A DNA stretch of 64,000 nt, taken from assembly GCA_038845265.1 (NCBI GenBank), contig JAWBQR010000006.1, forward strand, positions 32,001 to 96,000, given 5' to 3'. Within the stretch, counting starts at the first letter, position 1; each line of letters opens with the position of its first letter. This DNA comes from Nitrososphaerota archaeon. GTDB lineage: Archaea > Thermoproteota > Nitrososphaeria_A > Caldarchaeales > Calditenuaceae. The translations under genes were made by a program, and so were the position numbers. Under the pieces are notes generated by a model, which did not search any database, was not told where the DNA came from, and saw only the letters and a program-made list of their open reading frames with translations. Shown here piece by piece: positions 1,074 to 63,648 of this stretch.

Positions 1074-1074
1074 C

Positions 1075-28966: not shown

Positions 28967-28970
28967 CTGT

Positions 28971-29753: not shown

Positions 29754-29798
29754 TATACTCTAAATCATAGTTACTTAATGATTATTTCTATATCTTCC

Positions 29799-48010: not shown

Positions 48011-50323
48011 TTAAACTATTTCCAATAATTTAAGAATGAATGCCTGACCAGCTGATATGCATCCGTCATTCGGGGGGAGTCTTTTACTCATTTTGAGGAT
48101 TAAACCGGAGTTTTTTAAGGACGATTCAATTCCTTGAATAATGTACTCATTTACGGCTGCACCACCACTAACATAAACAACATTACTTCCATAATTAAGT
48201 GCTTCTTCTAGTGCTGCATTGCCAAGTAGTTTCCCAATAATTAATTGTGCAGTGTACGCAATATCTTGACTTTTCGTATTATCTATCAGATCGACTAATT
48301 GACGAATTATCTCCGTCGAAGGAATGATTCCATCCTTGTAGTTAATTAGGTCTGAAGTTAATAGTTTAATTTCTCGCCCATTACTAGCATGTTCTTCAAG
48401 CAAAATTGCTGGTTCACCCTCATATGTACGCTCTTTACATAATTGCAAAAGGACAGAAACGCTATCAAGTACTCGGCCGGTGCTAGACGTTAATTGTCCC
48501 CTTCCAGATTTAGCCAAAGATATACATTGTTGGAACTCTTCGAAGCCGTGGGGAAAATAATGAATTAATCCTCTTCTCTCGAATAATCTTACGATTTCTT
48601 CTTCACTCAATATTTTGCTTAGAATTGATACAAGCATTCTAGCCGGATATTTAGTAGCTAGGTCTCCTCCAGGCATAATTTGATACTCGAGATGAGCTTT
48701 TCTTTCAATTTTTTCAGAATCCCATGTAAGTATCTCGCCTCCCCAGATTGCTCCATCCTCGCCATATCCTGCACCATCAATCGTTATTGCTACAGCTGGT
48801 TCATCAATGTCGTGTAGATTATCAAGCATGGCTGATGCCATATGCGCTTTATGATGCTGAACTTTGATTAGCTCCGATCCATATTTATTACTCCAATTTT
48901 CAGCAAGAAGAGAAGAACTATAAAGAGGATGTAAATCAGAAACTATGATTGCGTCTTTTGGATTGATTTTGTAATAATTACATAACCTATAGAGATATTT
49001 CTCAAGGTCCTTATAACACTCGTATTCATCAACATCGCCGATATATTGTGTAGGAATTATTTTGTTGTCTATCGCTATCGCGCCCGTGCTCTGTAGATCT
49101 GAGCCGAATGCGATGACAGGTCTACTGAATCTTAGATTAGTTTCTATCCATCTAGGCGCATACCCTCTCCCTCTTCTTAAGAATACTGCCTCGCCCCTAG
49201 TAAACCTAATGACTGAGTCATCAACTCTGTTTATTATACGTCTATTATGTACTAGGAAATAGTCTGCCACACTTGTCAACTTCTTTAAATCCTCTTCACC
49301 AATTATCATGGGATGACCAGTAGGGTTTCCGCTTGTCATTATTGCAAATTTATCCTTAATATTCATCAATAAGAGATAATGAAGCCCCGTATATGGTATG
49401 AAAACTCCCAAGGTGTTTAGTCCTGGTGCTACTAAAGGAGAAACATTAGCATCAGCAGTCCTAGGCAGAATTAATATCGGTCTCTCATAACTCAGCAGTA
49501 ATTTCTCAGCCTTATCATTTACCAAAACAAGTTTTTTTAAAATCTCAAGATTTAATGCCATTATAGCGAAAGGCTGTCTTGGACGATGCTTTCGGAGGCG
49601 TAGCTTTAAGACAACCTCGTCATCAGATGCTAGGCATGCTAAATGGTAGCCTCCAATGCCTTTGACAGCCACGATGCATCCTTCATTTATCAGTTTGGCG
49701 GTTTCAAGAATAGGGTCTCTGACATTTAGCAATTTTAAATCGTTGTCAAGTAGATTTAGTCTCGGCCCACAATATGAACAGCTGATTCCCTCTCCGTGGA
49801 ATCGTCTTATATCTGATACATTATTATATTCTTCAATGCAGCTGGGACATAGCGGGAATTCTTTCCAACTAGTGTTATCTCTATCGTAGGGTATACTTTC
49901 AATGATAGAATACCTTGGACCGCACCATGCACATGAATTAAACGCATATGCATATCTCCTATTTTCTTTGTCGAGGATCTCTTTTAGACACCACTCACAG
50001 ATACTTATGTCTGGAGGAACTTCAGAAATGAGGAGGGAGTCTGAAGAACTTTTATGAATAGTAAATTCATTGAAGTTGTTTGGTTTCGCGTCATTAATTA
50101 TTATTTTTTCTATCTTTGCTGTCGGAGTTATACCTTTTTCTATGGATTTGATGAAAAGTTCAACTTTTCTGTCTTCACCCTCTACCCAGATCTCGACTTC
50201 TCCTCCACCCAGGTTTTTTACATATCCATTTACTCCTACACTTAATGCGAGACGAGTGATGGCGGGTCTGAATCCTACACCCTGAACAACGCCAGTGACA
50301 GTTATTCTAACAGCCCTTAGCAT
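48011..50323 (-). CDS. hypF: [NiFe]-hydrogenase maturation carbamoyltransferase HypF
   Basis: GVVQGVGFRP acylphosphatase domain, zinc fingers, AVKGIGGYHL, QHHKAH, DGAGYGEDG.IWGGE, PPNDG. Confidence 0.96.
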   Translation of the reverse strand: MLRAVRITVTGVVQGVGFRPAITRLALSVGVNGYVKNLGGGEVEIWVEGEDRKVELFIKSIEKGITPTAKIEKIIINDAKPNNFNEFTIHKSSSDSLLISEVPPDISICEWCLKEILDKENRRYAYAFNSCAWCGPRYSIIESIPYDRDNTSWKEFPLCPSCIEEYNNVSDIRRFHGEGISCSYCGPRLNLLDNDLKLLNVRDPILETAKLINEGCIVAVKGIGGYHLACLASDDEVVLKLRLRKHRPRQPFAIMALNLEILKKLVLVNDKAEKLLLSYERPILILPRTADANVSPLVAPGLNTLGVFIPYTGLHYLLLMNIKDKFAIMTSGNPTGHPMIIGEEDLKKLTSVADYFLVHNRRIINRVDDSVIRFTRGEAVFLRRGRGYAPRWIETNLRFSRPVIAFGSDLQSTGAIAIDNKIIPTQYIGDVDEYECYKDLEKYLYRLCNYYKINPKDAIIVSDLHPLYSSSLLAENWSNKYGSELIKVQHHKAHMASAMLDNLHDIDEPAVAITIDGAGYGEDGAIWGGEILTWDSEKIERKAHLEYQIMPGGDLATKYPARMLVSILSKILSEEEIVRLFERRGLIHYFPHGFEEFQQCISLAKSGRGQLTSSTGRVLDSVSVLLQLCKERTYEGEPAILLEEHASNGREIKLLTSDLINYKDGIIPSTEIIRQLVDLIDNTKSQDIAYTAQLIIGKLLGNAALEEALNYGSNVVYVSGGAAVNEYIIQGIESSLKNSGLILKMSKRLPPNDGCISAGQAFILKLLEIV

Positions 50324-51372
50324 ATCCTTGGAACCGGATCACCAATAGGCGGAGGAATGATTCTTTTACCACCAATAGTTGTCTCTAAAATTACACCTTT
50401 AAATGAATCGGTAACGTATCCGATTATACTTGCTTGGCTCCAACCTGAATTCTTAATTGATTCAAGAATTTCTTCGGCCTTATCGTTTATGACACTCATT
50501 ACAACCTTTCCTTCGTTTCCAACCTCAAGTATGTCGATGCCTAACAATTCAGACGCTGCCTTAGCTGCTGAACTTATTGGTAATGCGTCTTCTCTAATGA
50601 CGAATCCGAGCCCTGTATTTTCTGCCCACTCATTTAACAATCCAGCAAGTCCTCCCCTTGTCGGGTCTTTTGCGCAAGTAACGCCGCCGACCTTCAATGC
50701 CTCTCTCATCAATTTATTTAGAGGGGCTACGTCTGATTTTACGTCTGATTTAAAGCCCAATTCTCCACGCGCAGCAAGAATTGCTACTGCATGGTCGCCG
50801 AGGGGGCCATTCAAAATTATCTTATCTCCAGCCCTAATGTTTTTAGTTATAAGCCACATCGAGGAATGGTCATCCCTACTTCTCTTAATTATTTCGTAGT
50901 TTTGCATTAATTCTTGGCCGGGTACCCCTATGCCGGAACAGTTAATCAAGAGTTTATCGACTCGGCCCTTCTCAACTACTTTTGTATCACCAGTAATTAT
51001 TGAGGTTTCTGCCTCAAGAGCTGCCTCCCTCATGCTGTTTAAGATCTTTTCAATATTGGAAATCTCAAACCCCTCTTCGATTATTAAGCCGCAAGATACT
51101 CCAAGAATTTTTGTTGCTCCTTTAACTGCTAAGTCATTAATTGTTCCGCACACAGCCATCCTACCGATATCGCCTCCTGGAAAGAATAGTGGATATACAG
51201 TGTACGAATCAGTTGTAAATGCTATACCGTTAACAATTGCTGAATCTTCAAGGAGATAGAGAGGTACATCAATATTCCTGGATAAATCACCAAAATATTT
51301 TAAAACATACTTATGAATAAATTGCAGCATATATTTTCCGCCCGCGCCGTGAAGCATTGTAACATTATTCAT
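50317..51372 (-). CDS. hypE: Hydrogenase maturation carbamoyl dehydratase HypE
   Basis: HGAGG, TTDSY…FFPGGDIG, GDTKVV, DPTRGG, C-terminal PRIC. Confidence 0.96.
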   Translation of the reverse strand: MNNVTMLHGAGGKYMLQFIHKYVLKYFGDLSRNIDVPLYLLEDSAIVNGIAFTTDSYTVYPLFFPGGDIGRMAVCGTINDLAVKGATKILGVSCGLIIEEGFEISNIEKILNSMREAALEAETSIITGDTKVVEKGRVDKLLINCSGIGVPGQELMQNYEIIKRSRDDHSSMWLITKNIRAGDKIILNGPLGDHAVAILAARGELGFKSDVKSDVAPLNKLMREALKVGGVTCAKDPTRGGLAGLLNEWAENTGLGFVIREDALPISSAAKAASELLGIDILEVGNEGKVVMSVINDKAEEILESIKNSGWSQASIIGYVTDSFKGVILETTIGGKRIIPPPIGDPVPRIC

Positions 51373-51378
51373 TGTTGA

Positions 51379-52191
51379 TCACTTATTCTTGGGTTTAGAA
51401 ATAAACTGTTCAAGCGCCTTAGCAAAACCTTCTGGAAGCTCGATGGACTCCGTTAAAGAGGTATCGGTACATACTCCGACAGTGTAAATATCAGCTGCTA
51501 GCTTATTAGAAGTTTTATTCCAGACAAAATTGCGGAACTTCACATGTTTTCTACCTATTTCTTCAACCCAGACAATTACTTCGATCTCATTGTCCAACCG
51601 GACTGGAGAGAGTATTTTTCCCCCCGTCTCGACTGTCGGTATGAAACGGCCGAATTTATGTATCAGTGTTGAGTATCCAAACCCAACGCTTGCTAATAGC
51701 TCTTGTTGACACCGCTCACAGAACTTGAAATAATTAGTATAATGCATAACCTGTAAATAATCCGTGTCTGAAAGAGATATTTTATATGTCCTTTTGAAAG
51801 CATTGCTAGGAATTTCTAACTTATCTTTTGTATCAACTTCATCATCTTCGTTTATATCTTTACCTACCCCCTCAATGTTTTGGGCATCGAGGCCAAGACT
51901 TGATAATAATTTTTTAAAATCCGCCATAGCTTTAGAACTCGCTTCCTCAGGGCTAAGCCCCATTTCTCTATAGTTTATTTCTGCTAACTCGGAATACAGC
52001 GCCAAATTTGTCGCTACATCTTTAGGGTCCATTTTTCCAATTATAACTCCTGCGTGAACCATTACAAAATCATTTATATTTACATCGTCTATCGCCAATA
52101 GAGCTTCCCTGACTACGCCTCCAAAATCTATCTTGGCTATTTTATTTTCATTATCAATTTCTAAAACTTTACCAGGTGCTCCCCAACACAT
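51379..52191 (-). CDS. hypC: HypC chaperone fused to a YbgC/4HBT-like hotdog thioesterase domain
   Basis: N-terminal MCWGAPGKV…DFGGVVRE…VMVHAG (HypC); C-terminal YKISLSDTDYLQVMHYTNYFKFCE…SPVRLDNEI (4HBT family); one continuous 270-aa frame. Confidence 0.88.
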   Translation of the reverse strand: MCWGAPGKVLEIDNENKIAKIDFGGVVREALLAIDDVNINDFVMVHAGVIIGKMDPKDVATNLALYSELAEINYREMGLSPEEASSKAMADFKKLLSSLGLDAQNIEGVGKDINEDDEVDTKDKLEIPSNAFKRTYKISLSDTDYLQVMHYTNYFKFCERCQQELLASVGFGYSTLIHKFGRFIPTVETGGKILSPVRLDNEIEVIVWVEEIGRKHVKFRNFVWNKTSNKLAADIYTVGVCTDTSLTESIELPEGFAKALEQFISKPKNK

Positions 52192-52194
52192 ATC

Positions 52195-53421
52195 TTATTC
52201 CCCTTTATTGATTAGTGAATTTTTAATGTCTCCATGTTTTGCCCATACATTACATGTCCCCTCAATCGATACCATGCATGGTCCCCACGGTGTCTCGGGC
52301 GTGCATGATTTCATAAATAGTGGACAATCTGTTGGTTTGGATATTCCGAGCACTACTTCCCCGCATCTACAGTTAGGAGGCAAATCGTACTTCCCGGGCT
52401 CTCCGAAATGCGCATGAGTCATAACATACTCAGAAGGTGAAGCGTCAGGTATACCAAAATACTCAAAGGCATCATAGATCTTCCTGAAATCTTCTCGAAA
52501 CATTAATCCACTTCTCGCTATCATGCCAATCCCCCTCCAGGCGGCGTATGTGGGCTGAAAAACCTCATTCACCATTTTTTTTACATAAGAGTTACCATTA
52601 GGTTTAACTAACCTTTTGTACTCGATTTCTAGTCTTGGTTTTTGGTTATCAATCATTTTAAGAATTGTTGCGATCGCCATTAGTATATCTATTGGCTCAA
52701 ATCCCGTAACAACGGTTGGGAGACCGAAGTTTTCAGGAAGAAATCGCCACTCATAACCGCCAATGACGGCCGAGACATGTCCAGGCGCTATGACCCCCAT
52801 TATAGGGAGTAATCCTCTTTCCTTGTACAGCTTTACAGTAAACTTCATCGCTGGCGGAGTGAGACGTACAAGACTCATGAACTTAAGGTTGGTTGGTACC
52901 TCTCCCTTATAAAAGAAGAAGCCGTAAATAGGTAAAATTGTCTCAAAGCCTATTCCGAGAAATATGCTTTCCTTTTTATGTGTTTTTGCGTCTTTTATGG
53001 CGTCAAAAAATGAATAGACAACTTTGACTTCAGCGCCCAGGGACTTTGCTTCATAAAGAGATCTTGCTGGTGTTTTAGGCCTACTTGAAGGAAGCCTAAG
53101 TGCATCGCCATATGTATAAATAGTATATCCTTCAAGTGCAAGCTTAATAGACATATCTATGTAGTTTGACGGCACTACGCATACTGGGCAGCCTGGACCG
53201 GCTACAAGCTCTATGCTTCGTGGCAATAAGCTCCTCAATCCATAATGCGTTATAGCCCATTCATGCGTACCGCAGAAATGCATTATCTTAATTAATGAAT
53301 TATTTTCGAATTGTTTTTTCATGATTTTCTCTGCATATTTTTTGATTATTCCAATTAATGATGAAGCAAGTTCACGGTTGCTTCGAAATATATCCTGAAC
53401 AGTTCTCAGCTCTGGTTGCAA
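52195..53421 (-). CDS. hypD: Hydrogenase maturation protein HypD
   Basis: CGTHE, GPGCPVCV, GFET, PGHVS, CRCGEV…CPLF…GPCMVSIEGTC. Confidence 0.96.
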   Translation of the reverse strand: MQPELRTVQDIFRSNRELASSLIGIIKKYAEKIMKKQFENNSLIKIMHFCGTHEWAITHYGLRSLLPRSIELVAGPGCPVCVVPSNYIDMSIKLALEGYTIYTYGDALRLPSSRPKTPARSLYEAKSLGAEVKVVYSFFDAIKDAKTHKKESIFLGIGFETILPIYGFFFYKGEVPTNLKFMSLVRLTPPAMKFTVKLYKERGLLPIMGVIAPGHVSAVIGGYEWRFLPENFGLPTVVTGFEPIDILMAIATILKMIDNQKPRLEIEYKRLVKPNGNSYVKKMVNEVFQPTYAAWRGIGMIARSGLMFREDFRKIYDAFEYFGIPDASPSEYVMTHAHFGEPGKYDLPPNCRCGEVVLGISKPTDCPLFMKSCTPETPWGPCMVSIEGTCNVWAKHGDIKNSLINKGE

Positions 53422-53897
53422 TTAATATGGTCACCTCTTCTAGTAATTTTCATAATGATGTCAAAAACATTCTTTGTAATTGAATCCAATTTTTCGGAAA
53501 TTTCTAGTGAAATATTATCTCCAATTGTATATGGATCTTTTGTTTCAATTGCAATTATATGTATAAAGTTAGGACGAAGTAATTCTAGTGCATGGATAGC
53601 CATCAAGGCTTCAGGAAGTCCTGCATAATGAGGTGAAAACACAGACATGGATTTCATTAAATCCCCATCCAGTTCGTATACGTGTCCTACTGGATGTTTG
53701 TTGCTTCTTATACCATCAACTATTATGACCATGTCGTAGCCGTGAATGTAATCTAGTAATGAGAGTCCTGTTTTTTCTAAGATATGCGTATCAATACCCA
53801 TTTTTTCTAGTTCTCCCATCAGACGTTTCCCTACTTCTATTCCTACGGCATCATCCCTGTAAATAGGATTACCGAGGAATAGAACGACTACTTTCAC
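53406..53897 (-). CDS. Hydrogenase maturation endopeptidase
   Basis: LGNPIYRDDAVG, IIVDG, SPH. Confidence 0.9.
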   Translation of the reverse strand: MKVVVLFLGNPIYRDDAVGIEVGKRLMGELEKMGIDTHILEKTGLSLLDYIHGYDMVIIVDGIRSNKHPVGHVYELDGDLMKSMSVFSPHYAGLPEALMAIHALELLRPNFIHIIAIETKDPYTIGDNISLEISEKLDSITKNVFDIIMKITRRGDHINCNQS

Positions 53898-53903
53898 AGC
53901 CGA

Positions 53904-55364
53904 TTATAAATTATGCCGAACTACATTAAGTAGTTTGCCATTCATGTCATAAATGTATACAGCTAGTGGCATATTCCCCGGCAGTGAATGAGTTCCACAC
54001 GCATGGCATGGGTCATAGGCCCTAAACGCCATCTCTATCATGTTTAATATACCTTCATTTATCTGGCCTTGTCTGATCAATTGTTTTGCTGCCTTATCAA
54101 TTGATAAGGCAATTCTTGCAGCATTGTTTTGTGTAGCGACTATGAGATTAGCCTGTTTAACTACTCCACGTTCATCAGTTATGTAGTGATGTATTAATGT
54201 GCCTCGAGGCGCCTCAACGACTCCCATACCTTCACTTGGTTGATCTTTAGGAATATTTCTTATATTTTGATCAGTTATATCAGGATCATTTGCTAATTCC
54301 TGAATTCTTTCTGCTGCATAAATCATCTCTATCACCCTTGCCCAGTGGTTTGCGAGAGTGTGATGAACAGGTCTACCAATCATCGAAATCATTTCCTCAA
54401 ATGCTGATTGTGCCTCATGTGTAGGTAATGATTGAGAAACATTAAGTCTCGCAAGGGGTGCTACACTATATATCCCGCTATCTTCTCCATCAATGAATCC
54501 TTTCCAACCTATTTTCTTTAGGAAAGTGAATTTAATATATGTCCATGGCTCAACATGTTCTCCAACATATTCTAAGTACTGATGTACATCAAATTTAGCA
54601 AATTCATTACCCTTTGGGTCGACTACTCTTATTTTTCCATCATAGAAGTTGAGCTGGTTCTTCTCATCAACTAAACCCATATAATAGGTTCTATGTGTAT
54701 ATGCATCGCTAGTTATAAGATTGAAGTATTGGTCATTACTTAATACTAGAGTTTTAAACAGCTTCATGGTAAATTTTGCAAATTCTACAGACTCTTCTGC
54801 TACTTGTTTTATTTTTTCTAACTCATTATTTTTTATTGGTCTTGAGACTCCGCCAGGCACTCCTGATACTGGATGGATTGTTTTACCACCCAGCATTAGA
54901 TTTATTTCTCTAAGTTTTTTACGAATTGATATAACTCTTAGCACATTTTCTTTACCAACCTTGTTAATTACTCCCAGTATGTTTCTTTCTTCTTTAGGTG
55001 AAGTCGGTCCAACTATGAAATCTGGTCCTCCTAATATATAGACGTGGAGAGCGTGGTCTTCAAGCATGAATATGTTATACATAAGTTCTCTAATCTTTCT
55101 GGCAGTCAGTGTTGGAGGGCAATTATAGAGGTCATCAAGCGTTTTCGTAGAAGCCATGTGATGCGCCATAGGGCAGACACCGCATATCCTAGCAGTGATT
55201 TGCGGCATGTCCTCGACTGCCCTTCCCTCGGCAAATTTTTCAAATCCCCTGAGTTCTGGTATTTGGATGTATGCTCGGTCCACGTTTCCAACATCATTTA
55301 TAAATATGATTATCTTCCCATGTCCTTCAAGCCTAGTTATTGGGTCAATTACTATTTCTCTCAC
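53904..55364 (-). CDS. mvhA: Group 3c [NiFe]-hydrogenase large subunit (MvhA-like)
   Basis: ITRLEGHG, L1 RICGVC, EAPRGTLIHHY, L2 RAYDPCHACGTH followed by a cleavable C-terminal extension. Confidence 0.93.
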   Translation of the reverse strand: MREIVIDPITRLEGHGKIIIFINDVGNVDRAYIQIPELRGFEKFAEGRAVEDMPQITARICGVCPMAHHMASTKTLDDLYNCPPTLTARKIRELMYNIFMLEDHALHVYILGGPDFIVGPTSPKEERNILGVINKVGKENVLRVISIRKKLREINLMLGGKTIHPVSGVPGGVSRPIKNNELEKIKQVAEESVEFAKFTMKLFKTLVLSNDQYFNLITSDAYTHRTYYMGLVDEKNQLNFYDGKIRVVDPKGNEFAKFDVHQYLEYVGEHVEPWTYIKFTFLKKIGWKGFIDGEDSGIYSVAPLARLNVSQSLPTHEAQSAFEEMISMIGRPVHHTLANHWARVIEMIYAAERIQELANDPDITDQNIRNIPKDQPSEGMGVVEAPRGTLIHHYITDERGVVKQANLIVATQNNAARIALSIDKAAKQLIRQGQINEGILNMIEMAFRAYDPCHACGTHSLPGNMPLAVYIYDMNGKLLNVVRHNL

Positions 55365-56347
55365 TTTCTCACACTCCTGAGAATATTTCTTAAGCCTGAT
55401 TTTGGAAGCGAGTATTTGTAAATTAAACCTAAAATGTCCGGGAGCTTTGAGATTTCTTTTCTTATTTGTTCTTCATCTTCGAGATCTAGTATACTGCCAA
55501 GGAAGGATATCGCCTTTCCTCCATAATCATGAATATTGTCAAGTGGTCCGAAGCAGCCTGTGCAGGGCATGTTAGCTTTAATGCAGAGCGCACTGCATCC
55601 TCCTCTCGTCACAGGACCTAAGCAGGGCAATCCTTGAACTAGGAGACACTGATTTGGGTCAGGCACGAAGTGGACTACTCGTTTAAATTCTTTAATTAAT
55701 ACATTCTCTGGCTTTGTATCATTAAGCGGACATTCATTGCATAACGATTTGTTGCTGGCTCCTATCACTGAGCCCTTGCTGGGAAGCTTTCCTGATAATA
55801 ATATATTGATCGCTTCCCAAGTAACTTCAGGTGTTGGTGGACATCCAGGCACGTAATAATCTACGGTAATAACCTCGTCAAGAGGCTTGAGGCTAGGTAA
55901 AAATTCTGGTAAATCAATTTTAGCACCATTGATTTCTACAGGGCGAGTCTGGGAAGGTATTATTTTCTCAGGATTAACAGTAGTGGGCGTAGTTATATAG
56001 GCCCTTTCAAGTATCTCCTCTCGTCTATAATTGTTTGCTAGTCCAGGAATTCCTCCCCAACATGCACATGCTCCATATGCCACGACGAACATAGATTTTC
56101 TCCTCAGCAATTTTACTATCTTCTCATGTTCGGATAAACGAACACCGCCATTAATGAAGCTCACAGTTATTGAATCATCTGGCATAGCCTCTATGTCCGG
56201 GATCTTGAAGTCCATGGCGACAGGCCAAAACACGATATCGACAAGATTAACCACATCTAAAATTTTCTCACCTAAGTCTACTACTGCTTCTTCGCATCCA
56301 CCACAGCTTGCGCACCAATAAAATGCAACTTTTGGACGTATACTCAT
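55361..56347 (-). CDS. mvhG: [NiFe]-hydrogenase small subunit (MvhG-like)
   Basis: CASCGGC, GACA..GG, PGCPP, CNEC…CL…CLGP.TRGGC…C…PCTGC.GP. Confidence 0.93.
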
Positions 56348-56772
56348 ACGGCTTCGACCTCTAATTTGACTGGGCCTAATCTTTTCAGATCTCTAACCAT
56401 TTCATTTACTACTTGTACCCACTTATTTGCTTCCGATGCTGATATCCATTCAAGTCTGAATCGCTCCTTTTCGATTCCTAATTCCTCTAACAATCTTCGG
56501 AATAAGCTATAACGTCTAAGTGCCTTTATGTTTCCACTAATGTAGTGACAATCAGAAGGTGGATGGCAACCGGCTACGATTACACCATCAGCACCCTGCT
56601 CAAATGCCGCGAGGACGAATTGTGGATCAATACGTCCAGAACACATGACTCTGATAACTCTCACATTTGGCGGATACTGCATCCTACTAGTTCCGGCTAG
56701 GTCAACAGCAGCATAGGTACACCAATTACAGGCGAATACAACAATTTTAGGCTCGTAGTCATTAGAGCTCAT
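56344..56772 (-). CDS. mvhD: [2Fe-2S] adaptor subunit MvhD
   Basis: [24 protein letters not shown]…GCHPP.DCHY, WISASE. Confidence 0.95.
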
Positions 56773-56773
56773 T

Positions 56774-58714
56774 TTAGTCACCTTTTATTAATGCCAAAAC
56801 TTGAGCTAGTACCTGTCTGTCCTTAAAGCTATACTGCTGCATCGCTCCTGATGGACATGCTGCAGAACAAGTACCGCAACCCATGCATAATGCTCTCTCG
56901 ACGTAGGCAATCATTCTTCCATTAATTTCTTTGAGTGAAATAGCCTTATATGGACATAAGCCCACGCAGATCCTACAACCACTACACAATTCATCATTTA
57001 CGGTGGCTACAAATGGTTCAGTCTTGACTTTTCCTTTTGATAAGAGAGCAGCCGCCTTAGAAGCAGCGGCACTTCCAGTTCTAATACTCTCAATAATGTT
57101 TTTTGGCCCAGTAACTGACCCTGCTAGAAAGATGCCTTGGGTAGGAGCTTCTACTGGATTAAGCTTGAGATGCGCTTCTCTGAGAAATCCATCTGTGCCA
57201 CAACTAGCTCTGGTAACTGCAAGTAGGTCTATAAGATCCCTTCTCGGAATCATACCTACCGATAAAACGATTAAATCTACCGGTATGCTTATTTCTTCCT
57301 GAATAGTGACTTCATATACGTCAATTAAAATTCCTTCAGGGCCAATGTCCACTACTGGGGGTTCCTCAAATTTGATGAACTTAATGAGATGCTCTCCGGC
57401 CCTCTCATAAAGACTTTCATCATTTCCATAAGTATTGATGTCTTGGTAAAGAATAAACACATCTGTTTCAGGATACTTTTCTTTTATTTTGATCGCATTT
57501 ATCAATGTAGATGTGCAGCACATCCTTGAACAATAACTCTTAGAATTGGGCGTTGTATTACGCGAGCCTACGCATAATATAAAAGCGATTCTTTTAGGTA
57601 TCGTTCCTCCTATTATTAATTTTCCCTGAGTTGGGCCGTCTTTATCTAAAAGTCTCTCTAGCTGGAATAGCGTAATTACATTATTATGAAGACCATATGC
57701 ATATTCGCCCTTTGGTGGAATGTATGGATCATATCCAGTAGCTATGATGAGTGCTCCAACATTTAAATCCAACAATTTAGGTTGCTCAGATAAATCGATT
57801 GCATTAAACCTACATGCTTTTACGCACTCGCCACACTTGATGCAGACTCTTTGATCTATAACATACATGAGTGGATAGGCTGTCTTAAATGGATAATAGA
57901 TGGCTTTTCTTCTTGATAATCCATATTGATACTCATCTGACAATTCGATTGGGCACTCAACTTCACATTCTCCGCACAAAATGCATTTTTCATTTATATA
58001 CCGCGGATTTATTCTGATTTTTGCTTTAAAGTTGCCTGGAAAACCACCAAACTCGATTAGTTCAGAATTTGTGAATACGTGGATCTTTCTATTCTCTGCA
58101 ATTTTGTTAATTAAATTATTTACTACATCGGCACCTCTTCTATCACTTTCAAGCCATCCGGTTAGGGCGGCTCTCCCCCCAAGCGTGGGGCTTTTCTCAA
58201 CTAAATAAACTTCAAATCCATATTCCGCAAGGTCAATTGCAGCCCTCATTCCAGCGACGCCACCGCCAAGCACCAAAACGGCGGGATATGTCTGAAACTC
58301 TGTCTCTTCCAATGGTTCTAGGAGAGCGGCCTTGGCAACAGCCATCCTAATTAAGTCCATAGCCTTCTTAGTGGCTGCTTCTCTATCAGAATGAGCCCAT
58401 GAGCAATGCTCCCTGATATTTGCCATTTCTAATAAGTACTTATTCAGTCCTGCACTTTCTATGGCGGACCGGAATGTAGGTTCATGCATTGAGGGTGAGC
58501 AAGCAGCAACTACAACTCTATTCAAATTATGCTTCTTTATCTCTTCCTTTATCAATTCTTGGCCTACAGTTGAGCACATAAACACATAGTCGTGACTCAC
58601 TATAACATTCGGAAGTTTCTTTGCATATTCACTGACTGTTTTAACATCTACTTTTGAGGCTATGTTATGTCCACAATGACAGATAAATACTCCAACCCTA
58701 GGCTCAATACTCAT
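56774..58714 (-). CDS. hdrA: HdrA-family FAD/Fe-S subunit, full length (QmoB-like position before mvhD)
   Basis: [32 protein letters not shown], inserted and C-terminal 2x[4Fe-4S], CVGSR, CSRMCC. Confidence 0.9.
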
Positions 58715-60072
58715 GATTTATCACCTTTTATGGTAATTATCTTTTCAATCATATGCCTCTTTGCAATTGTAGAGGCCTTTATCGCGGCTGAACTAGCCAT
58801 CGTTACAGAGTCTGGAATGTCCCTTGCTTCAGCTGCGCCCCCAATGACAAAAATTCCCTCCATAGAAGTTGAGACAGTGTCAAGATAGGGATCCATAAGC
58901 TGTATAAATCCTCCTTTATCTGTCTTCAGTGGTATGGAAGAAATTTTATTAGGCCTAACTGCAACTGATAGAACCACCATATCAAATTCTTCTTTCTTCA
59001 TGTAGCTATGCAGGGTATCCTCATAGAATAATATTAAATTCTTATTGTGCGGGTTCTCAATGATCTTGACTACTTTACCTCTGACATATTTTACTCCATA
59101 CTCCGTCATGGCTCTTTTGAAGAATTCATAGAATCCCTTACCAAATGCCCTCATATCCATAAAATAAATCGTAGTATCCACGTCTGGAATGTGTTCTTTT
59201 GCTAGAATCGCTTGCTTCGTAGCGGCCATGCAGCAAAACGCAGAACAGTAATGATTGAATCTTATATCTCTTGAACCAACGCATTGAATCCAAGCTATCT
59301 TTTTTGGATGCTTTCCATCTGACCTTCTAATTAACTCTCCATTTGTTGGTCCTGTTGATGATACTAATCTCTCAAACTCTAGATGAGTGTAAACATTCTG
59401 ATATTTACCGTAACCATACTCAGGAATGTTACGTGCATCATATAGGTCTAGACCAGTAGCGACTATTATCGCTGCGACATTAATCTCAATGATTTCTGAC
59501 TGTTGATTATAGTCAATAGCCTTTGTTGGGCAAACCTTCTCACATGCACCACATAACGGCTTTCCTTTTGCTTTTTCTTTAAGGTCAGGAGGTGGGTTTA
59601 GTCTCAGACATTGTGTAGGATCAATCAGTGCTTTTCGCGGGACTGCCTGAGGATATTCAATGTATATTGCCTTTCTTTGGCTGAGATTTGCGTTATACAG
59701 ATCTGAGACTTTAACCGGGCATCGCTCGATACATGTCCCGCATCCTGTACATTTATTCCAATCAACATATCTTGGCTTCTTTAAAATCCTAACTGTAAAA
59801 TCCCCTATCTTTCCTTTTACTTCCTGCACCTCTGAATACGTCAGAAGCTTTACATTACTATATCTCAGAAGCGCTGCCATCTTTGGAGTCAATATGCATG
59901 ACGCACAGTCAAGTGTTGGAAACGTCTTGTCAAGTTGTGCCATCTTTCCACCAATACTCGGATTCTTTTCTACTAGATAGACTTCAACTCCGTGTTCGGC
60001 GAGGTCAAGACTGGCCTGAATTCCCGCAATACCGCCACCTATTACGAGTACTGGTTTACTCAAGTATCTCAC
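58711..60072 (-). CDS. hdrA: Second HdrA-family subunit, lacking the N-terminal and C-terminal domains (QmoA-like size)
   Basis: GGGIAG, GGKMAQLDKTFPTLDCASCIL, inserted ferredoxin, LEFERL, QCVGSRD, CSAFCCMAATKQA, RDIPDSV. Confidence 0.88.
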   Translation of the reverse strand: MRYLSKPVLVIGGGIAGIQASLDLAEHGVEVYLVEKNPSIGGKMAQLDKTFPTLDCASCILTPKMAALLRYSNVKLLTYSEVQEVKGKIGDFTVRILKKPRYVDWNKCTGCGTCIERCPVKVSDLYNANLSQRKAIYIEYPQAVPRKALIDPTQCLRLNPPPDLKEKAKGKPLCGACEKVCPTKAIDYNQQSEIIEINVAAIIVATGLDLYDARNIPEYGYGKYQNVYTHLEFERLVSSTGPTNGELIRRSDGKHPKKIAWIQCVGSRDIRFNHYCSAFCCMAATKQAILAKEHIPDVDTTIYFMDMRAFGKGFYEFFKRAMTEYGVKYVRGKVVKIIENPHNKNLILFYEDTLHSYMKKEEFDMVVLSVAVRPNKISSIPLKTDKGGFIQLMDPYLDTVSTSMEGIFVIGGAAEARDIPDSVTMASSAAIKASTIAKRHMIEKIITIKGDKS

Positions 60073-61186
60073 CTCTTATGAACCCTTTTCTCGCGCTTAC
60101 GTAATTAGCGATTGACTTGTATAACCAGTGGTTATGTTTGCCGAACGGTACCTCGAGTAAAAGGAAGGGAAAGACGACACCAATATGTAAGACATAAATT
60201 ACATAAGACATGAAATAAACATTTAGATCGTTAAAGATATTCATGAGTAGGCCTGTTAAGCCTATTACGAAGACATACCCTAAACTAATCCAATCAGTGG
60301 AGTGTCTAAACATCTTATAATACCAATGAATCTTTGGAGAATTACTAAGACGCTTAACAAATGGTAAGCCTGCACCGACTACGAGTAGCAGAGCAGCTAC
60401 GTATCTACTCGCCATAATCACGTATGCGAATGGATAGATAGAGTAAATTGCGGGATAGATCAAGTAGATAAGGACTAGCAATATGTATAGAATTATCCCT
60501 GCTAGTATGAACATATGTTCAAGAATCCTTATTCTTTTATCGGAAATTTTTAATGCGTCATTCTCACTCTTTATCCAAAATCTTAATACTCTCTTAAATG
60601 ATTCGAAGAAACTGATGACATAATCTTTGCCGCCACCCACAAATTTGTACATTCTATATCCATTGCTTGCTAATAATCCAAGGCTAAGCACTGTTAAAAG
60701 TATTCCTATTGGTAGTATTTCAGGCAAGTTTACAAAAACGTTTTTTGATAAATAATTCATTATTGAGGAATAGAATATCGATAATAATCCAACGATAGAG
60801 ATCATTGATAGAATAAAAGTGACCAAGAGTTTTTTCTTTAATGAGGAGAAGTACCACCACTTTGATATTCCTGTCCAGTCGTAAAGCGTGCTTTGGTATC
60901 TTCTTAATGATGCTAGTATCTCACATGGATTAGCATCTCGTGGACATGCTTCAATACAGTCTCCGTGAACATTACACAGCCAAGGCACTAGGTCTTTCTG
61001 AAGCTTATCCACAAATCCCAGTTGCGCATACTTAATTACTCTTCTAAAACTAATAAACATGCCTTCAGCTATAGCACAGGTTGCAGTGCAGGAACCACAT
61101 TGATAGCATTTGAAGATGCCTTTGCCTCCTAGTTCTATTATTTCCTTGTTGATATCTTTAAAAGATATATAAGGAGTTGCCTTCAT
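60056..61186 (-). CDS. QmoC-like subunit 2 (HdrC-type Fe-S domain plus cytochrome-b-like TM domain)
   Basis: CYQCGSCTATC and WLCNVHGDCIEACP; about 6 TM helices with His (LEHM, RHSTDW, LHIG, KHNH). Confidence 0.75.
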   Translation of the reverse strand: MKATPYISFKDINKEIIELGGKGIFKCYQCGSCTATCAIAEGMFISFRRVIKYAQLGFVDKLQKDLVPWLCNVHGDCIEACPRDANPCEILASLRRYQSTLYDWTGISKWWYFSSLKKKLLVTFILSMISIVGLLSIFYSSIMNYLSKNVFVNLPEILPIGILLTVLSLGLLASNGYRMYKFVGGGKDYVISFFESFKRVLRFWIKSENDALKISDKRIRILEHMFILAGIILYILLVLIYLIYPAIYSIYPFAYVIMASRYVAALLLVVGAGLPFVKRLSNSPKIHWYYKMFRHSTDWISLGYVFVIGLTGLLMNIFNDLNVYFMSYVIYVLHIGVVFPFLLLEVPFGKHNHWLYKSIANYVSARKGFIRGEILE

Positions 61187-62349
61187 ATTTTTGTCACTTC
61201 AGTTATTTTGGATTGACGAATTTCGTTAATTTTAGAGAAATATAAAGCGATGGGGCGGTAGGCAATATGTGCCCACTTCGTGAACGGTACACCTAATATG
61301 AGAAATGGCACAACGACCATTAGATGGAGTGAGAAAACTACGTATGTACCTATTGGCCATCCAATACTTCTAAATATGCCTGTTAACAATCCTGTAATGG
61401 ATATCAGTACTAATAGAATGATGAACATCCAATCAGTTGGATGTGAATATTTCCAGAGTGGTTTATTCTTTTTAATGCGCCCGCTAATTACTGTAAGTCC
61501 TCCATAGGCAATTGTAAAGACCGAAAATAGTCCAATTATGCTAAGGGGTGAAACGAATAAAAATGGATCATTTGTATGCGTAAACACCAAAAGCAGTTCG
61601 AACAGTACTAGAGAGGCTACATAGCCATAAAATATTAATAAATGAACTAACCAGTATTTTCTATCATTGCAATAGCTGAATAGCTTCTGTGTAAGGAAAT
61701 TAGGAATAAGCGTCTTAAAGAATTCTCTAACATAAATCAACAAAGGCAGTTTTACTTTAAGGTTTGAAGTTAGTCGATACATCCGGTAAATATTTATGAG
61801 AAGTATTGATGCGAGAACCGCAAAAATGAGCCGTCCAGCATTTTCCACGATTTCTATTGGAGCAAAGACAGCTAAAGCCACCTGATCTAGTATTATCGGT
61901 CCATGAAACAGGTAAATAATAATGCCTGTTAAAATTGATAATGATAAGATTGCAAAGAGCAATATCTTATTGTTAAGATATAGTAGTTTTGAGATTCCGG
62001 TCCAGTCATAAACCATGGTTAGATATCTTCTAAGCGTCATCATAAGCTCGCTTGGATTTGCATCACGTGGACAAGAATTACTGCACTCTCCGCAGGCATA
62101 ACATAACCATGGTGTCAGGTCGCTTGATATTTTTTTATCTAGTCCAAGCTGAGCATATTTAATCGATCTTCTAAAACTAATTAAGTAATCCTCAGATATT
62201 GGACAAATCGCAGTACATGACCCGCATTGATAGCACTTCATAATTCCATCGCCGCCTAATCTAATTATTACGTCGGTAATCTTTTCTTCTTTTTGAATCG
62301 GCATTAATAGTGTTGCCACAGGCTGCCTTATTCCCATGCTACTATTCAA
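61183..62349 (-). CDS. QmoC-like subunit 1 (HdrC-type Fe-S domain plus cytochrome-b-like TM domain)
   Basis: CYQCGSCTAICP and WLCYACGECSNSCPRDANP; TM His motifs VHLL, SHPTDW, LHLM, PFTKWAHIAYRP. Confidence 0.8.
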   Translation of the reverse strand: MNSSMGIRQPVATLLMPIQKEEKITDVIIRLGGDGIMKCYQCGSCTAICPISEDYLISFRRSIKYAQLGLDKKISSDLTPWLCYACGECSNSCPRDANPSELMMTLRRYLTMVYDWTGISKLLYLNNKILLFAILSLSILTGIIIYLFHGPIILDQVALAVFAPIEIVENAGRLIFAVLASILLINIYRMYRLTSNLKVKLPLLIYVREFFKTLIPNFLTQKLFSYCNDRKYWLVHLLIFYGYVASLVLFELLLVFTHTNDPFLFVSPLSIIGLFSVFTIAYGGLTVISGRIKKNKPLWKYSHPTDWMFIILLVLISITGLLTGIFRSIGWPIGTYVVFSLHLMVVVPFLILGVPFTKWAHIAYRPIALYFSKINEIRQSKITEVTKI

Positions 62350-62480
62350 TATTTAAATTATGACTATATATAGATGTGTTTAATTGGACTTACTGCATTA
62401 AGTTAAATATATCTGTATCTATTTGAAATTAATTGTAGGTAAGACATACATTTTAGTTAGAATTGTGACGTAAATTTTTG

Positions 62481-62888
62481 ATGCATGAATTCACCGTAGC
62501 AATGGGGATTGTAGATTCATTAAAAGAATTATATTTAAACAAGGGTTTCAAGATTAATAGTTTCAAGATAGTTATCGGTGAATTATCGATGTTTAATCCA
62601 AGCATAATTAATGATCTTGTTAGAGAATTAATTAAGGAAACAGAATTAGAAAACACTAAATTTAAAGTAATTATTGAGGAAGCAAAAATCAAATGTGAAT
62701 CATGCAATGAAACTCACAGCTTTAATGAACTCTCAAAACAGTTAAGTGAGGAAGAAAAAGAGATGATTCATTTTATTCCTGAATTAATTTCATCATATAT
62801 GAAGTGTCCATCATGTAGTAGTAGAGATCTAAAGATTATGAGTGGGAGGGGAGTAAAGGTGATTGACATTGCGTTGCAAAAACGATAA
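62481..62888 (+). CDS. hypA: Hydrogenase nickel metallochaperone HypA
   Basis: MHE N-terminus, IGELS, CESC…(EMIHFIPE insertion)…CPSC, SGRG. Confidence 0.93.
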   Translation: MHEFTVAMGIVDSLKELYLNKGFKINSFKIVIGELSMFNPSIINDLVRELIKETELENTKFKVIIEEAKIKCESCNETHSFNELSKQLSEEEKEMIHFIPELISSYMKCPSCSSRDLKIMSGRGVKVIDIALQKR

Positions 62889-63648
62889 GGAAATAATAGA
62901 TTATAGAGAATCCCTAATAAGAAAAAGGCTTAGCAAGATATCGTCTTCAATTTTTATCGGTAGTGGTAAGGGTGGAGTCGGTAAAAGCCTAATAGCAGCG
63001 ACGATGGGATTAATACTAAGCTCTGAGGGTTTCAAAACTGGACTTTTAGACCTAGATATGCACGGCCCTTCATCATCTGCAATTCTTAATATTAATGAGC
63101 TACCACGCGAAGAAAAAGAAGGGTTAAAGCCACCAACAATATGTGGATTAAAGGTCATGTCTGTAGGCTTGTTTGTAAAGGATTCGCCATTACCATTAGG
63201 CGGCCAAGCAAAAAGAGAAATCTTAAAAGAATTACTAGCGATTACAGACTTCGCCACTCTTGACTATTTAATAGTAGATCTTCCCCCTGGAACAGGTGAT
63301 GAGTCATTGGCAGCAATCAATTTTATTACTAATAATAGAGGAGTAATTCTAGTCTCTACACCCTCACTATTGTCACTCGAGGTCGTGAGACGAACTGCTT
63401 ACTTCTTTATCGATATGAAGATCAAAATACTGGGATTAATAGAGAATATGGTTAGAGAGGATAAGTTTGGTTACACTTATAAACTTGCACAAGAATTAGG
63501 AGCGCCCTTTTTGGGATACGTCCCATTCGACGAAAAGGTAATGTTTATCTATGAAAAATTAGAACCTAAATCATTGATAAATACGAAATTTTCCGAGGCA
63601 CTAAAAAACGTATTAATAAACGCAAAAATTCTCAGACATTATCACTAA
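62863..63648 (+). CDS. Mrp/MinD-family ATPase, probable Thermococcales-type HypB
   Basis: SGKGGVGKS, DLDMHGPS, DLPPGTGD, GLIENM with no following CxxC; coupled to hypA. Confidence 0.8.
   Translation: MTLRCKNDKEIIDYRESLIRKRLSKISSSIFIGSGKGGVGKSLIAATMGLILSSEGFKTGLLDLDMHGPSSSAILNINELPREEKEGLKPPTICGLKVMSVGLFVKDSPLPLGGQAKREILKELLAITDFATLDYLIVDLPPGTGDESLAAINFITNNRGVILVSTPSLLSLEVVRRTAYFFIDMKIKILGLIENMVREDKFGYTYKLAQELGAPFLGYVPFDEKVMFIYEKLEPKSLINTKFSEALKNVLINAKILRHYH

Follow-up and report, generated by a model that had tools for sequence, protein, structure and literature searches.

A hydrogenase cluster of a hot-spring archaeon that probably sends electrons from hydrogen to membrane quinone and ferredoxin at once

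A hot-spring archaeon probably sends electrons from hydrogen to its membrane quinone and to ferredoxin simultaneously. In the window, the whole 64,000-nucleotide stretch of DNA analysed, 12 tightly packed genes running from 62349 down to 48011 on the minus strand encode two QmoC-like proteins, two HdrA proteins, MvhD, MvhG and MvhA, a protease and HypD, HypC, HypE and HypF. The preferred reading, to which a probability of about 0.55 is given, is a single membrane-bound complex in which an Mvh hydrogenase is joined through MvhD to an asymmetric HdrA heterodimer and wired by QmoC to the quinone pool. Judged from sequence, the complex is probably a real and reversible H2:quinone/ferredoxin hydrogenase. 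As far as searches show, the Qmo-Mvh hydrogenase design has been described earlier in archaea and is biochemically uncharacterised; what is new is its spread over 23 further loci, the splitting of Cys194/Cys197 between long and short HdrA, and the QmoC2 paralogue.

Coordinates, Pfam and NCBIfam bear out the order and domains originally predicted, from the two qmoC-like genes through short hdrA, full hdrA, mvhD, mvhG, mvhA and the protease to hypD, hypC, hypE and hypF. Adjacent genes overlap by 4-17 nt or lie 3-6 nt apart, the longest overlap (17 nt) being that of the qmoC2 stop with the short hdrA start. Contigs from RNA libraries include fragments of both the QmoC and the HdrA/Mvh parts, none of which spans the QmoC-HdrA junction. 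Upstream and divergent on the plus strand are hypA (62478-62888, Pfam HypA E 1.1e-19) and a gene for a Mrp/NUBPL-type P-loop ATPase (62863-63648, Pfam ParA/NUBPL E 1.7e-53), which we take to be a possible archaeal HypB-type nickel-insertion partner. The AT-rich region between qmoC1 and hypA (62350-62477), read directly, is a putative promoter for both genes. A TATA-like run within it precedes an ATG at 62337 by about 30 nt; because of this run and the fit to a 384-aa database representative, that ATG is the likely true start of qmoC1, 62349 being a mechanical TTG start.

The hydrogenase module is complete in its large, small and adaptor subunits. MvhA, the [NiFe] large subunit (53904-55364, Pfam NiFeSe_Hases), carries an N-terminal RxCGxC and a C-terminal DPCxxC motif, both visible in the PDB alignment, plus a C-terminal extension that proteolytic maturation would remove; it matches 7t2r_D (367.5 bits) and MvhA 5odc_F (362.9 bits) in the PDB. 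The small subunit MvhG (55361-56347) is recognised by Pfam Oxidored_q6 (E 1.5e-26) and the [2Fe-2S] adaptor MvhD (56344-56781) by Pfam FlpD (E 9.5e-56). Scores against NCBIfam VhuA, VhuG and VhuD are 377, 212 and 145 bits, below the respective cut-offs of 800, 450 and 215. Maturation is represented by an endopeptidase (53406-53897; Pfam HycI, TIGR00072 75.7 bits, above cut-off), HypD (52195-53421, Pfam HypD), a HypC with a fused 4HBT thioesterase domain (51379-52191, Pfam HupF_HypC and 4HBT), HypE (50317-51372, Pfam AIRS/AIRS_C) and HypF (48011-50323, Pfam HypF domains). The operon holds hydrogenase, HdrA, QmoC and maturation genes exclusively.

The two HdrA proteins are unequal. The long, QmoB-like form (56774-58714, 646 aa) has an N-terminal cluster domain, the FAD core, an inserted ferredoxin domain and a C-terminal ferredoxin domain, carries all cluster motifs and aligns end to end with the solved HdrA 5odc_A (residues 4-642, E 4.5e-192, 642.8 bits); no MvhD domain is fused to it. 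In that alignment it lacks the equivalents of Cys194 and Cys197, the loop that bears Cys197 having no cysteine. [quoted passage not shown] The same division recurs elsewhere. The cysteine pair is missing from the long HdrA in all 24 Mvh-linked loci (window counted), and each of the 23 short HdrAs detected has it, locus L064 having none above the score filter. This split points to an asymmetric heterodimer of long and short HdrA, a logic already proposed for the tandem HdrAs of ANME in the available text of PMC9012536. The inserted ferredoxin domain has been lost from the long HdrA in 14 of 24 loci and never from the short one, where all 8 Cys are retained in 23/23 cases, in keeping with low-potential electrons leaving by way of the short subunit.

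QmoC1 (61183-62349) begins with an HdrC-like domain containing two CxxCxxCxxxC motifs, of which residues 22-102 match PDB HdrC chains (E 3e-13), followed by a six-helix NarI/EtfD-like membrane domain. It matches NCBIfam qmoC NF038018 over its full length at 183 bits, under the cut-off of 300. The closest folds to the membrane domain in an AF2 model (pLDDT 84.4) are two quinone-reactive heme-b proteins, EtfD (9ojn_A, VIA-align Z 11.1 over 219 aligned residues) and NarI (1q16_C, Z 10.4 over 160), at Z values of 10-11 that helical bundles can reach without kinship. Across 32 sequences H236, H303 and H342 are invariant, conservation of H361 and H149 reaches 90% or more, and H236 aligns with a His of the EtfD homologue encoded in the same window. 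EtfD, the best fold match, has one heme rather than two according to the available part of its description.

QmoC2 (60056-61186) also matches NF038018 in full (143 bits, again below cut-off) and shares 35% identity with QmoC1. In its second cluster motif, C-x2-H-x2-C-x3-C, a Cys is replaced by a His that is invariant among its 4 orthologues (69-82% identity), and the protein occurs in this genus and one other MAG only. Of 65 positions with conservation of 90% or more across 96 other QmoC-like proteins, it keeps 44, H236, H342 and H361 included, and changes 19; H149 is absent from it and from several further QmoC-like proteins. Its branch in the QmoC tree is long (2.96), and the protein is best described as a conserved, fast-evolving paralogue.

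The surrounding genome, 93.27% complete, sets the scope of every genome-wide absence given here. The prediction that no apr, dsr or mcr genes lie nearby extends to the whole of this 93.27%-complete genome, in which domain searches find no AprA, NIR_SIR (sulfite reductase) or McrA. The predicted lack of hdrB holds for the operon, and no free HdrB or HdrD occurs in the operon or the 93.27%-complete genome; CCG domains do exist there, in two fused proteins only, an EtfD homologue beside etfAB in the same window (30527-32539) and an LdhH/LutB-like protein on contig C5. The genome has no further copies of HdrA, MvhD or QmoC. A search for quinone biosynthesis found a MenA-like prenyltransferase, scoring under model cut-offs, and no MqnA/D in the 93.27%-complete genome, so that menaquinone synthesis in the host can be regarded as partly shown. 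Also encoded are heme O synthase, cytochrome bd, a heme-copper oxidase (COX1), a complex-I-type NuoD, two POR-type 2-oxoacid:ferredoxin oxidoreductases and a group 4 [NiFe] hydrogenase large subunit with both CxxC pairs.

In the proposed mechanism MvhA would, by homology, split H2, and the electrons would travel through MvhG and MvhD into long HdrA, entering at its C-terminal ferredoxin domain and proceeding to its FAD, the putative site of bifurcation. The low-potential electron would enter the N-terminal cluster of long HdrA, completed by the Cys197-equivalent of short HdrA, and leave through the inserted ferredoxin domain of the latter to ferredoxin. The high-potential electron would leave via the cluster of the thioredoxin-reductase domain, cross both [4Fe-4S] clusters in the HdrC-like part of QmoC and reach menaquinone by way of a predicted heme b. 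This quinone (about -75 mV; menaquinol potential from the available text of PMC3333476) would take the role of the methanogen heterodisulfide, and hence no HdrB would be needed. Cytochrome bd or the heme-copper oxidase could re-oxidise the quinol, and reduced ferredoxin could supply the complex-I-type enzyme. The anatomy fits bifurcation from H2 to ferredoxin and quinone, or its reverse, as originally predicted: there is an MvhA/G/D input arm, a HdrA with full motifs and a QmoC of HdrC-like and NarI/EtfD-like parts with conserved His, HdrB, Apr, Dsr and Mcr are lacking within the scope stated, and quinol oxidases and a MenA-like gene are encoded in the genome. This makes bifurcation and quinone reduction plausible, in either direction; the hypothesis itself is not new. 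The scheme gives no role to QmoC2 or to the FAD and cluster of short HdrA.

A synteny survey, which the original prediction had called for, finds the same gene set in 23 further loci (10 archaeal, 11 from Bacteroidota and 2 from other bacteria), in each of which QmoC directly adjoins HdrA/Mvh genes, in two distinct gene orders. This recurrence indicates that the arrangement is not due to chance. An Archaeoglobaceae MAG (L115), for example, has the order HypD-C-E, QmoC, short HdrA, long HdrA, MvhD-G-A, protease; its QmoC, HdrA and Mvh proteins share 53-69% identity with their counterparts in the window, QmoC1 being that of QmoC. QmoC/HdrA modules outside the Mvh-linked set adjoin other enzymes, namely NuoF-like (L064, L078) and FrhB-like (L109) proteins and ATP sulfurylase (L061), among 26 neighbouring proteins viewed from 14 of 77 such loci. 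The recurrence speaks against the idea that the QmoC pair is separate, for instance a quinone-linked redox module of its own beside a soluble MvhADG-HdrA assembly. Co-transcription is deduced from gene overlaps, and no RNA-library piece joins QmoC to HdrA; with the 17-nt overlap at that very junction and no other HdrC-type partner for the HdrA pair in the genome, such a separation is very improbable.

The reaction should be reversible, since flavin-based bifurcation is reversible in principle, and the strongest competitor of the preferred reading is the same complex run backwards, a confurcating enzyme that makes H2 from menaquinol and reduced ferredoxin without oxygen. Menaquinol could come from EtfAB-EtfD, a module encoded in the same window, from lactate dehydrogenase or from the complex-I-type enzyme, and reduced ferredoxin from the two 2-oxoacid oxidoreductases. 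All terminal oxidases found use oxygen, and an anaerobic quinol-oxidising reductase was not found in the 93.27%-complete genome, which has no detected molybdopterin enzyme and only dinucleotide-fold matches for an SdhA/FrdA-type flavoprotein. Group 3c hydrogenases are regarded as oxygen-sensitive, which sits uneasily with H2 uptake in such a host. With 2-oxoacid oxidoreductases already reducing ferredoxin and a group 4 hydrogenase present, the cell has no obvious need to drive ferredoxin reduction with H2, and the reverse direction deserves serious consideration. However, the mean potential of quinol plus ferredoxin is about -290 mV, which restricts H2 formation to low H2 pressure, the group 4 hydrogenase is already an outlet for ferredoxin, and the available preprint text presents the related Methanoglobus cluster as H2 uptake. 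Direction is not readable from sequence; uptake is the more likely main direction, and evolution the distinctly less probable one.

Two further readings accept the hydrogenase and dispute its acceptors. An unbroken path leads from MvhD through HdrA and the HdrC-like domain into the membrane domain with no part for ferredoxin, and the HdrA pair could be a mere wire in a plain H2:quinone oxidoreductase. A wire would hardly conserve the inserted ferredoxin domain in 23 of 23 short HdrAs together with the pairing of Cys197 and the N-terminal cluster in 24 of 24 loci, and the uptake hydrogenases known so far need many fewer cofactors to deliver electrons to quinone; this reading is unlikely. Slightly less credible still is a high-potential acceptor other than quinone, either a different protein or some soluble carrier of thiol or sulfur type that has escaped recognition, with QmoC acting as a tether or drawing electrons from quinol as in the QmoABC-AprAB confurcation model. 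The Qmo of sulfate reducers passes electrons to AprAB, a third partner being proposed in the available text of PMC3333476, and the varied neighbours of the non-Mvh modules agree with this; against it stand the operon content and a 93.27%-complete genome without detected AprA, sulfite reductase or free HdrB/HdrD.

Literature searches returned no biochemistry or structure for any Qmo-Mvh hydrogenase complex, as the original prediction had held. The methanogen MvhAGD-HdrABC complex (5ODC, 8RVU and related entries) shares MvhA, MvhG, MvhD, full-length HdrA and an HdrC-like di-cluster domain with the window, with strong sequence matches. The window differs in having no HdrB or CCG site and an HdrC fused to a predicted membrane heme domain, and in replacing the HdrA homodimer by a long/short pair that splits the Cys197 and N-terminal-domain functions. 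In sulfate reducers QmoABC, and elsewhere the 'type II' forms, likewise combine a short and a long HdrA-like flavoprotein with a QmoC of HdrC-like and cytochrome b domains (available text of PMC3333476 and PMC10504309), the latter source noting the 'type II' forms in organisms that lack Apr/Dsr, such as Vulcanisaeta moutnovskia and Ammonifex degensii; an Ammonifex QmoC (L040) falls in the same tree as those of the window. In contrast to QmoABC, the window genome lacks AprAB within the scope given, has a hydrogenase attached, scores below the qmoC cut-off and encodes MvhD separately rather than, as described there, at the C-terminus of QmoB. The tandem or fused HdrA pairs of ANME (PMC9012536, whose main text does not contain the word Qmo) differ, as far as that text goes, from the window pair in the partners of the latter, a hydrogenase and a membrane anchor. 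Mycobacterial EtfD (9OJN; available text of PMC13083937) and HdrDE resemble QmoC in their NarI-like heme-b domain, two cubane clusters and cytoplasmic redox module reducing menaquinone, whereas EtfD has CCG domains, ETF as electron source, one heme and no HdrA or hydrogenase partner. The closest parallel overturns the prediction that the composition was undescribed: the available preprint text (bioRxiv 10.1101/2022.12.01.518715, 10.1101/2023.09.08.556235) reports for Ca. Methanoglobus nevadensis and Ca. M. hypatiae a cluster of MvhAGD, two HdrA and an HdrC-QmoC fusion, transcribed in the latter at a high 995-2,431 RPKM, and proposes electron flow from H2 to menaquinone and ferredoxin. It has the same parts and proposed job as the window cluster, again with no HdrB and no Apr. 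That cluster has one QmoC and the window two, and its hosts are methanogens with Mcr and Fqo, whereas the host studied here, in which McrA was not detected, carries oxygen reductases.

The Mvh-Qmo genes of the window form one tight operon with the originally predicted gene set, as Pfam and NCBIfam searches confirm: 12 genes on the minus strand, running from 62349 down to 48011, with overlaps of 4-17 nt or gaps of 3-6 nt between them. Two QmoC-like proteins come first, QmoC1 (61183-62349) and QmoC2 (60056-61186), each composed of a membrane part and a di-cluster ferredoxin domain. They are followed by a short HdrA-like flavoprotein of 453 aa (58711-60072), a full-length HdrA of 646 aa (long HdrA, 56774-58714), MvhD (FlpD, E 9.5e-56), MvhG and MvhA and, after MvhA, by a maturation protease, HypD, a HypC-thioesterase fusion, HypE and HypF. 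Directly upstream lie hypA and a gene for an Mrp/NUBPL-type ATPase, transcribed divergently. The more likely start of QmoC1 is the ATG at 62337, because it is placed about 30 nt 3' of a TATA-like run and agrees with a 384-aa database representative. The HypC fusion (51379-52191, minus strand) carries a 4HBT hot-dog thioesterase domain by Pfam and recurs as a 277-aa protein in two loci from other genomes (L004, L005), whereas HypC is a plain 97-aa protein in two others (L007, L008).

Two sets of RNA-library contigs, both from a single study, contain short pieces of the operon, 7 in X3 and 11 in X4, with four in each at least 99% alike, and one 163-nt piece spans the junction of the short and long hdrA genes. 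These pieces do not count as shown expression, since DNA may have been present and neither strand nor level can be read from them. About 3% of each of two raw-read hot-spring runs (X5, X6), a sample too small for a test, contained no operon reads.

The [NiFe] large subunit MvhA has both cysteine-pair motifs, with MvhG and MvhD alongside. Its closest named matches are VhuA and MvhA and its gene adjoins those of MvhD and HdrA, features that are proxies only for HydDB group 3c. The three subunits miss the NCBIfam equivalog cut-offs for VhuA (377 of 800 bits), VhuG (212 of 450) and VhuD (145 of 215), and 7t2r_D, a chain of a bifurcating NiFe hydrogenase, equals MvhA in score against the large subunit of the window.

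Over its whole length the long HdrA can be aligned with the HdrA structure from Methanothermococcus (5odc_A, 642.8 bits), and it retains the cysteines of the N-terminal, inserted, thioredoxin-reductase-domain and C-terminal clusters; its Cys194/Cys197 loop, located by alignment to the solved protein, is devoid of cysteine. The short HdrA aligns to the core alone (residues 153-583 of 8rvu_a) and has the DCxxC loop. Cys194/197 are missing from the long HdrA in all 24 Mvh-linked loci, the window counted (the L182 copy is split over two frames), and both are present in every short HdrA found (23/23), the L064 locus having none above the score filter. The inserted ferredoxin domain is gone from the long HdrA in 14 of the 24 loci and is kept, with all eight cysteines, in 23 of 23 short HdrAs. 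The same cysteine complementarity is described for tandem HdrAs of ANME in the available portion of PMC9012536, according to which the N-terminal cluster of one chain is completed by Cys197 from the other, implying a heterodimer. Judging from the sequences, the low-potential branch probably exits via the short HdrA, so that each complex would have a single bifurcating flavin and a single site for hydrogenase docking. The division of Cys197 and N-terminal domain between the two HdrAs, together with the repeated loss of the inserted domain from the long one, provides a concrete and testable map of the electron path. In a Caldarchaeales MAG with a Qmo-Mvh cluster (L008, 3846-7213), a 663-aa HdrA that has the equivalents of both Cys194 and Cys197 lies 3 kb upstream of the cluster, along with a separate HdrC-like match, placing homodimer-type and heterodimer-type HdrA in one neighbourhood.

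Both QmoC-like proteins match the NCBIfam qmoC model NF038018 over its full length and fall under its equivalog cut-off of 300 bits (183 bits for QmoC1, 143 for QmoC2). HdrC chains in the PDB match QmoC1 over residues 22-110 (E 3e-13; Foldseek probability 1.0), and the AlphaFold model of QmoC1 (pLDDT 84.4, alignment of 32 sequences) contains six long membrane helices. Clear Foldseek matches against the PDB are limited to the HdrC-like domain, the membrane domain being found by a wide VIA search. By structure search without Foldseek, the nearest folds to the membrane part are those of M. smegmatis EtfD (Z 11.1, rmsd 4.2, 219 residues) and E. coli NarI (Z 10.4, rmsd 4.2, 160 residues), Z values that unrelated helical bundles can reach in either case. 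EtfD and NarI are quinone-reactive heme-b proteins. The Pfam Nitrate_red_gam match to the QmoC membrane domain (E 0.0056) lies under its cut-off. Three histidines (H236, H303, H342) never vary across 32 QmoC sequences, and two more, H361 and H149, reach at least 90% conservation; H236 of QmoC1 aligns with a histidine of the EtfD homologue encoded in the window. In EtfD, according to the available part of its description, His78 and His241 ligate one heme only, and by this analogy one predicted heme in QmoC is well supported; a second may be bound as well, as in NarI-type cytochromes b, where four histidines serve two hemes.

QmoC2 is 35% identical to QmoC1. Its orthologues (n=4) share 69-82% identity and all four carry the second cluster motif C-x2-H-x2-C-x3-C. 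Where 96 other QmoC-like proteins are at least 90% conserved (65 positions), QmoC2 keeps 44, and 19 are changed in all four copies; a decaying copy is rejected on those kept positions and on that identity over four genomes. A quick maximum-likelihood tree (100 rows) groups the QmoC2 sequences with full support, on a branch 2.96 changes per column long, and gives QmoC1 of the same four genomes a clade of its own (SH-aLRT 95). The simplest reading of these sequences is tandem duplication followed by fast divergence, an origin left unsure by the very long branch.

The assembly holding the window comprises 1.37 Mb in 34 contigs and is 93.27% complete, which limits what its absences mean. To that extent the predicted lack of hdrB is upheld: the operon has none, and CCG domains in the genome are confined to two fusions, a 670-aa homologue of mycobacterial EtfD (9ojn_A, E 6e-75) in the window beside etfAB and an LdhH/LutB-like protein on contig C5. 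The absence of apr, dsr and mcr genes, predicted for the neighbourhood, extends to the genome, where AprA, the sulfite-reductase fold (NIR_SIR) and McrA were not found; a sulfate- or sulfite-reducing role and a methanogenic role are rejected on these grounds. Searches of the same genome found no molybdopterin oxidoreductase, MqnA/D or further copy of HdrA, MvhD or QmoC, and nothing beyond dinucleotide-fold matches for an SdhA/FrdA-type flavoprotein. Cytochrome bd, heme-copper oxidase subunit I, NuoD and two POR-type 2-oxoacid oxidoreductases are encoded, with heme O synthase above its cut-off and a MenA-like prenyltransferase below its cut-offs. From the genes present and absent, the host looks heterotrophic, with an active ferredoxin pool and a quinone-based electron transport chain that ends in oxygen. 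The sole other hydrogenase found in this genome is of group 4, a [NiFe] large subunit in which both cysteine pairs are present (G000 C8:57194-58444).

The etf genes of the window occupy 27983-32539 on the minus strand, with etfA (27983-28966) and etfB (28971-29753) near the EtfD homologue (30527-32539). The latter combines two CCG domains and two [4Fe-4S] motifs with a NarI-like membrane domain, and as an EtfD homologue it is a likely archaeal ETF:menaquinone oxidoreductase. A 5-formyltetrahydrofolate cyclo-ligase encoded between etfB and the EtfD homologue extends over two overlapping frames (29799-30540, minus strand), 30082-30540 covering profile positions 3-89 and 29799-30242 positions 104-185. 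The break may be due to a frameshift or to faulty assembly, or the gene may be truly split. At the start of the window four consecutive minus-strand frames of 357, 234, 642 and 382 aa (3-4843) have no Pfam match at E <=1e-5, and a 568-aa plus-strand protein (5067-6773) carries TackOD1 (Thaumarchaeal output domain 1, E 1.7e-25).

Of the predicted bifurcation from H2 to ferredoxin and quinone, the anatomy is real and the mechanism plausible, its steps coming from homology. The favoured reading, with a probability of about 0.55, is a bifurcating H2-uptake complex. H2 would be oxidised at MvhA; one electron would pass uphill over the shared N-terminal cluster and the inserted domain of the short HdrA to ferredoxin, and the other downhill through the HdrC-like domain of QmoC and heme b to menaquinone. 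The potential of H2 is -414 mV and that of ferredoxin is near -500 mV. With menaquinone at -75 mV, the value in the available text of PMC3333476, the energetics thus resemble those of the heterodisulfide-linked enzyme. Because the cell makes reduced ferredoxin by other means and has EtfD feeding the quinone pool, the same complex might instead run mainly in reverse in vivo, a reading considered rather unlikely. A more elaborate arrangement would have two unlike cytochrome-b anchors docking on different HdrAs and wiring both flavins to the quinone pool, QmoC2 with a His-ligated, potential-shifted cluster. Such a complex would couple bifurcation to a redox loop in the membrane, in which quinone is reduced by one anchor and oxidised by the other, or the two work at different membrane depths. 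The complex prediction for QmoC1 with QmoC2 (score 0.01, mark 0.32) neither supports nor opposes a heterodimeric anchor, and the redox loop is judged a long shot; if true, it would be an undescribed kind of energy-conserving, proton-motive hydrogenase in an oxygen-respiring archaeon. The bifurcating uptake complex, if true, would give Mvh-type hydrogenases a third coupling mode, the quinone pool as against heterodisulfide or DsrC. It would account for the use of a group 3c hydrogenase without methanogenesis or sulfate reduction, and respiring H2 oxidisers could still produce low-potential ferredoxin.

A pattern scan with the QmoC alignment returned at least 600 stretches, at least 585 of them confirmed; 80 were retained and, with 17 earlier loci, make 97. 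Among the matches listed, MvhG or MvhA lies beside the QmoC/HdrA genes in 20 of the 97, and 27 of the other 77 are shorter than 12 kb, where a contig end may explain the missing Mvh. A third scan added 71 locus ids, four with Mvh, one of these on a contig already counted. The synteny survey thus places the cluster in at least 23 distinct loci besides the window. Going by record titles, ten are archaeal (Nitrososphaeria, Nitrososphaerales, Caldarchaeales, Ca. Geocrenenecus, Bathyarchaeia, two 'Thermoprotei', Archaeoglobaceae and two other archaea) and 13 bacterial (11 Bacteroidota, one Eubacteriales, one Calditrichia). The module therefore reaches beyond one lineage, into TACK archaea, Archaeoglobaceae and many Bacteroidota, and owing to this spread a bench result from any tractable carrier would annotate many genomes. 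Paired QmoC genes are confined, among the matches listed, to the window, L004, L005 and L037. Across 76 genomes of the host class, QmoC2 orthologues occur in all three genomes of the host genus, no QmoC-like match in the 16 other genomes of the host family, and single QmoC-like genes in one genus that belongs to a different family. Such a scattered occurrence of the cluster is what a transferable module would be expected to show. Modules without Mvh adjoin NuoF-like, FrhB-like or ATP sulfurylase genes in a small sample (26 neighbour proteins, 14 of the 77 loci), which hints that the QmoC/HdrA module may be a general adaptor to the quinone pool. Three loci have a Complex1_51K (NuoF-like) or FrhB-like gene instead of the hydrogenase (L064 11541-14630, L078 11483-13369, L109 16250-17404), which suggests that this membrane adaptor may also come in forms linked to NADH or F420H2.

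A 2021 review by Appel et al. is reportedly cited elsewhere for bifurcation by Qmo. A hydrogenase is already named as a possible Qmo partner in the available text of PMC3333476, and a Mvh-QmoB pairing is tentatively suggested in PMC3949148. Literature searches on QmoC with group 3c hydrogenase, on QmoABC cryo-EM and on group 3c in Bacteroidota found no description of the cluster, and Aigarchaeota and Wolframiiraptoraceae papers have Mvh:Hdr or Mbh only, QmoC being unmentioned in the main texts, to which the search was confined. In the portions available, the Ca. Methanoglobus nevadensis preprint (10.1101/2022.12.01.518715) speculates on electron flow among H2, ferredoxin and menaquinone, and the Ca. 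M. hypatiae preprint (10.1101/2023.09.08.556235) reports the same cluster at 995-2,431 RPKM and makes the bifurcation hypothesis explicit. The original prediction that no complex of such composition has been characterised holds for enzymology and structure, neither of which was found in the literature searched, but architecture and idea are already in these preprints, and the window cluster is therefore a variant of a described but untested kind, not a new architecture.

The cluster shares MvhA, MvhG and MvhD with MvhADG-HdrABC but lacks HdrB, with its two CCG domains and disulfide-reducing site, in the operon. The two [4Fe-4S] clusters of HdrC are present here only as the N-terminal domain of both QmoCs, with one Cys replaced by His in QmoC2, and in place of a homodimeric HdrA with mutual Cys197 the short HdrA would provide Cys194/197 for the long one. 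With QmoABC it shares an HdrC-like domain fused to an HdrE/NarI-like cytochrome b domain, recognised by NF038018 and by the folds of EtfD and NarI, with predicted heme binding. In contrast to QmoB, which has a fused C-terminal MvhD-like domain, the long HdrA of the window has its C-terminal ferredoxin domain as the last one, MvhD being encoded separately by the gene that follows; the genome offers no link to AprAB or sulfate reduction. The cluster corresponds to the Methanoglobus-type Mvh/HdrA2/QmoC cluster, as far as the available text describes that one. An Archaeoglobaceae MAG (L115) has the same gene order and is 53-69% identical to the window in QmoC1, HdrA and Mvh proteins; the window has one additional QmoC. 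What is novel here is this second, divergent anchor and the oxygen-respiring host.
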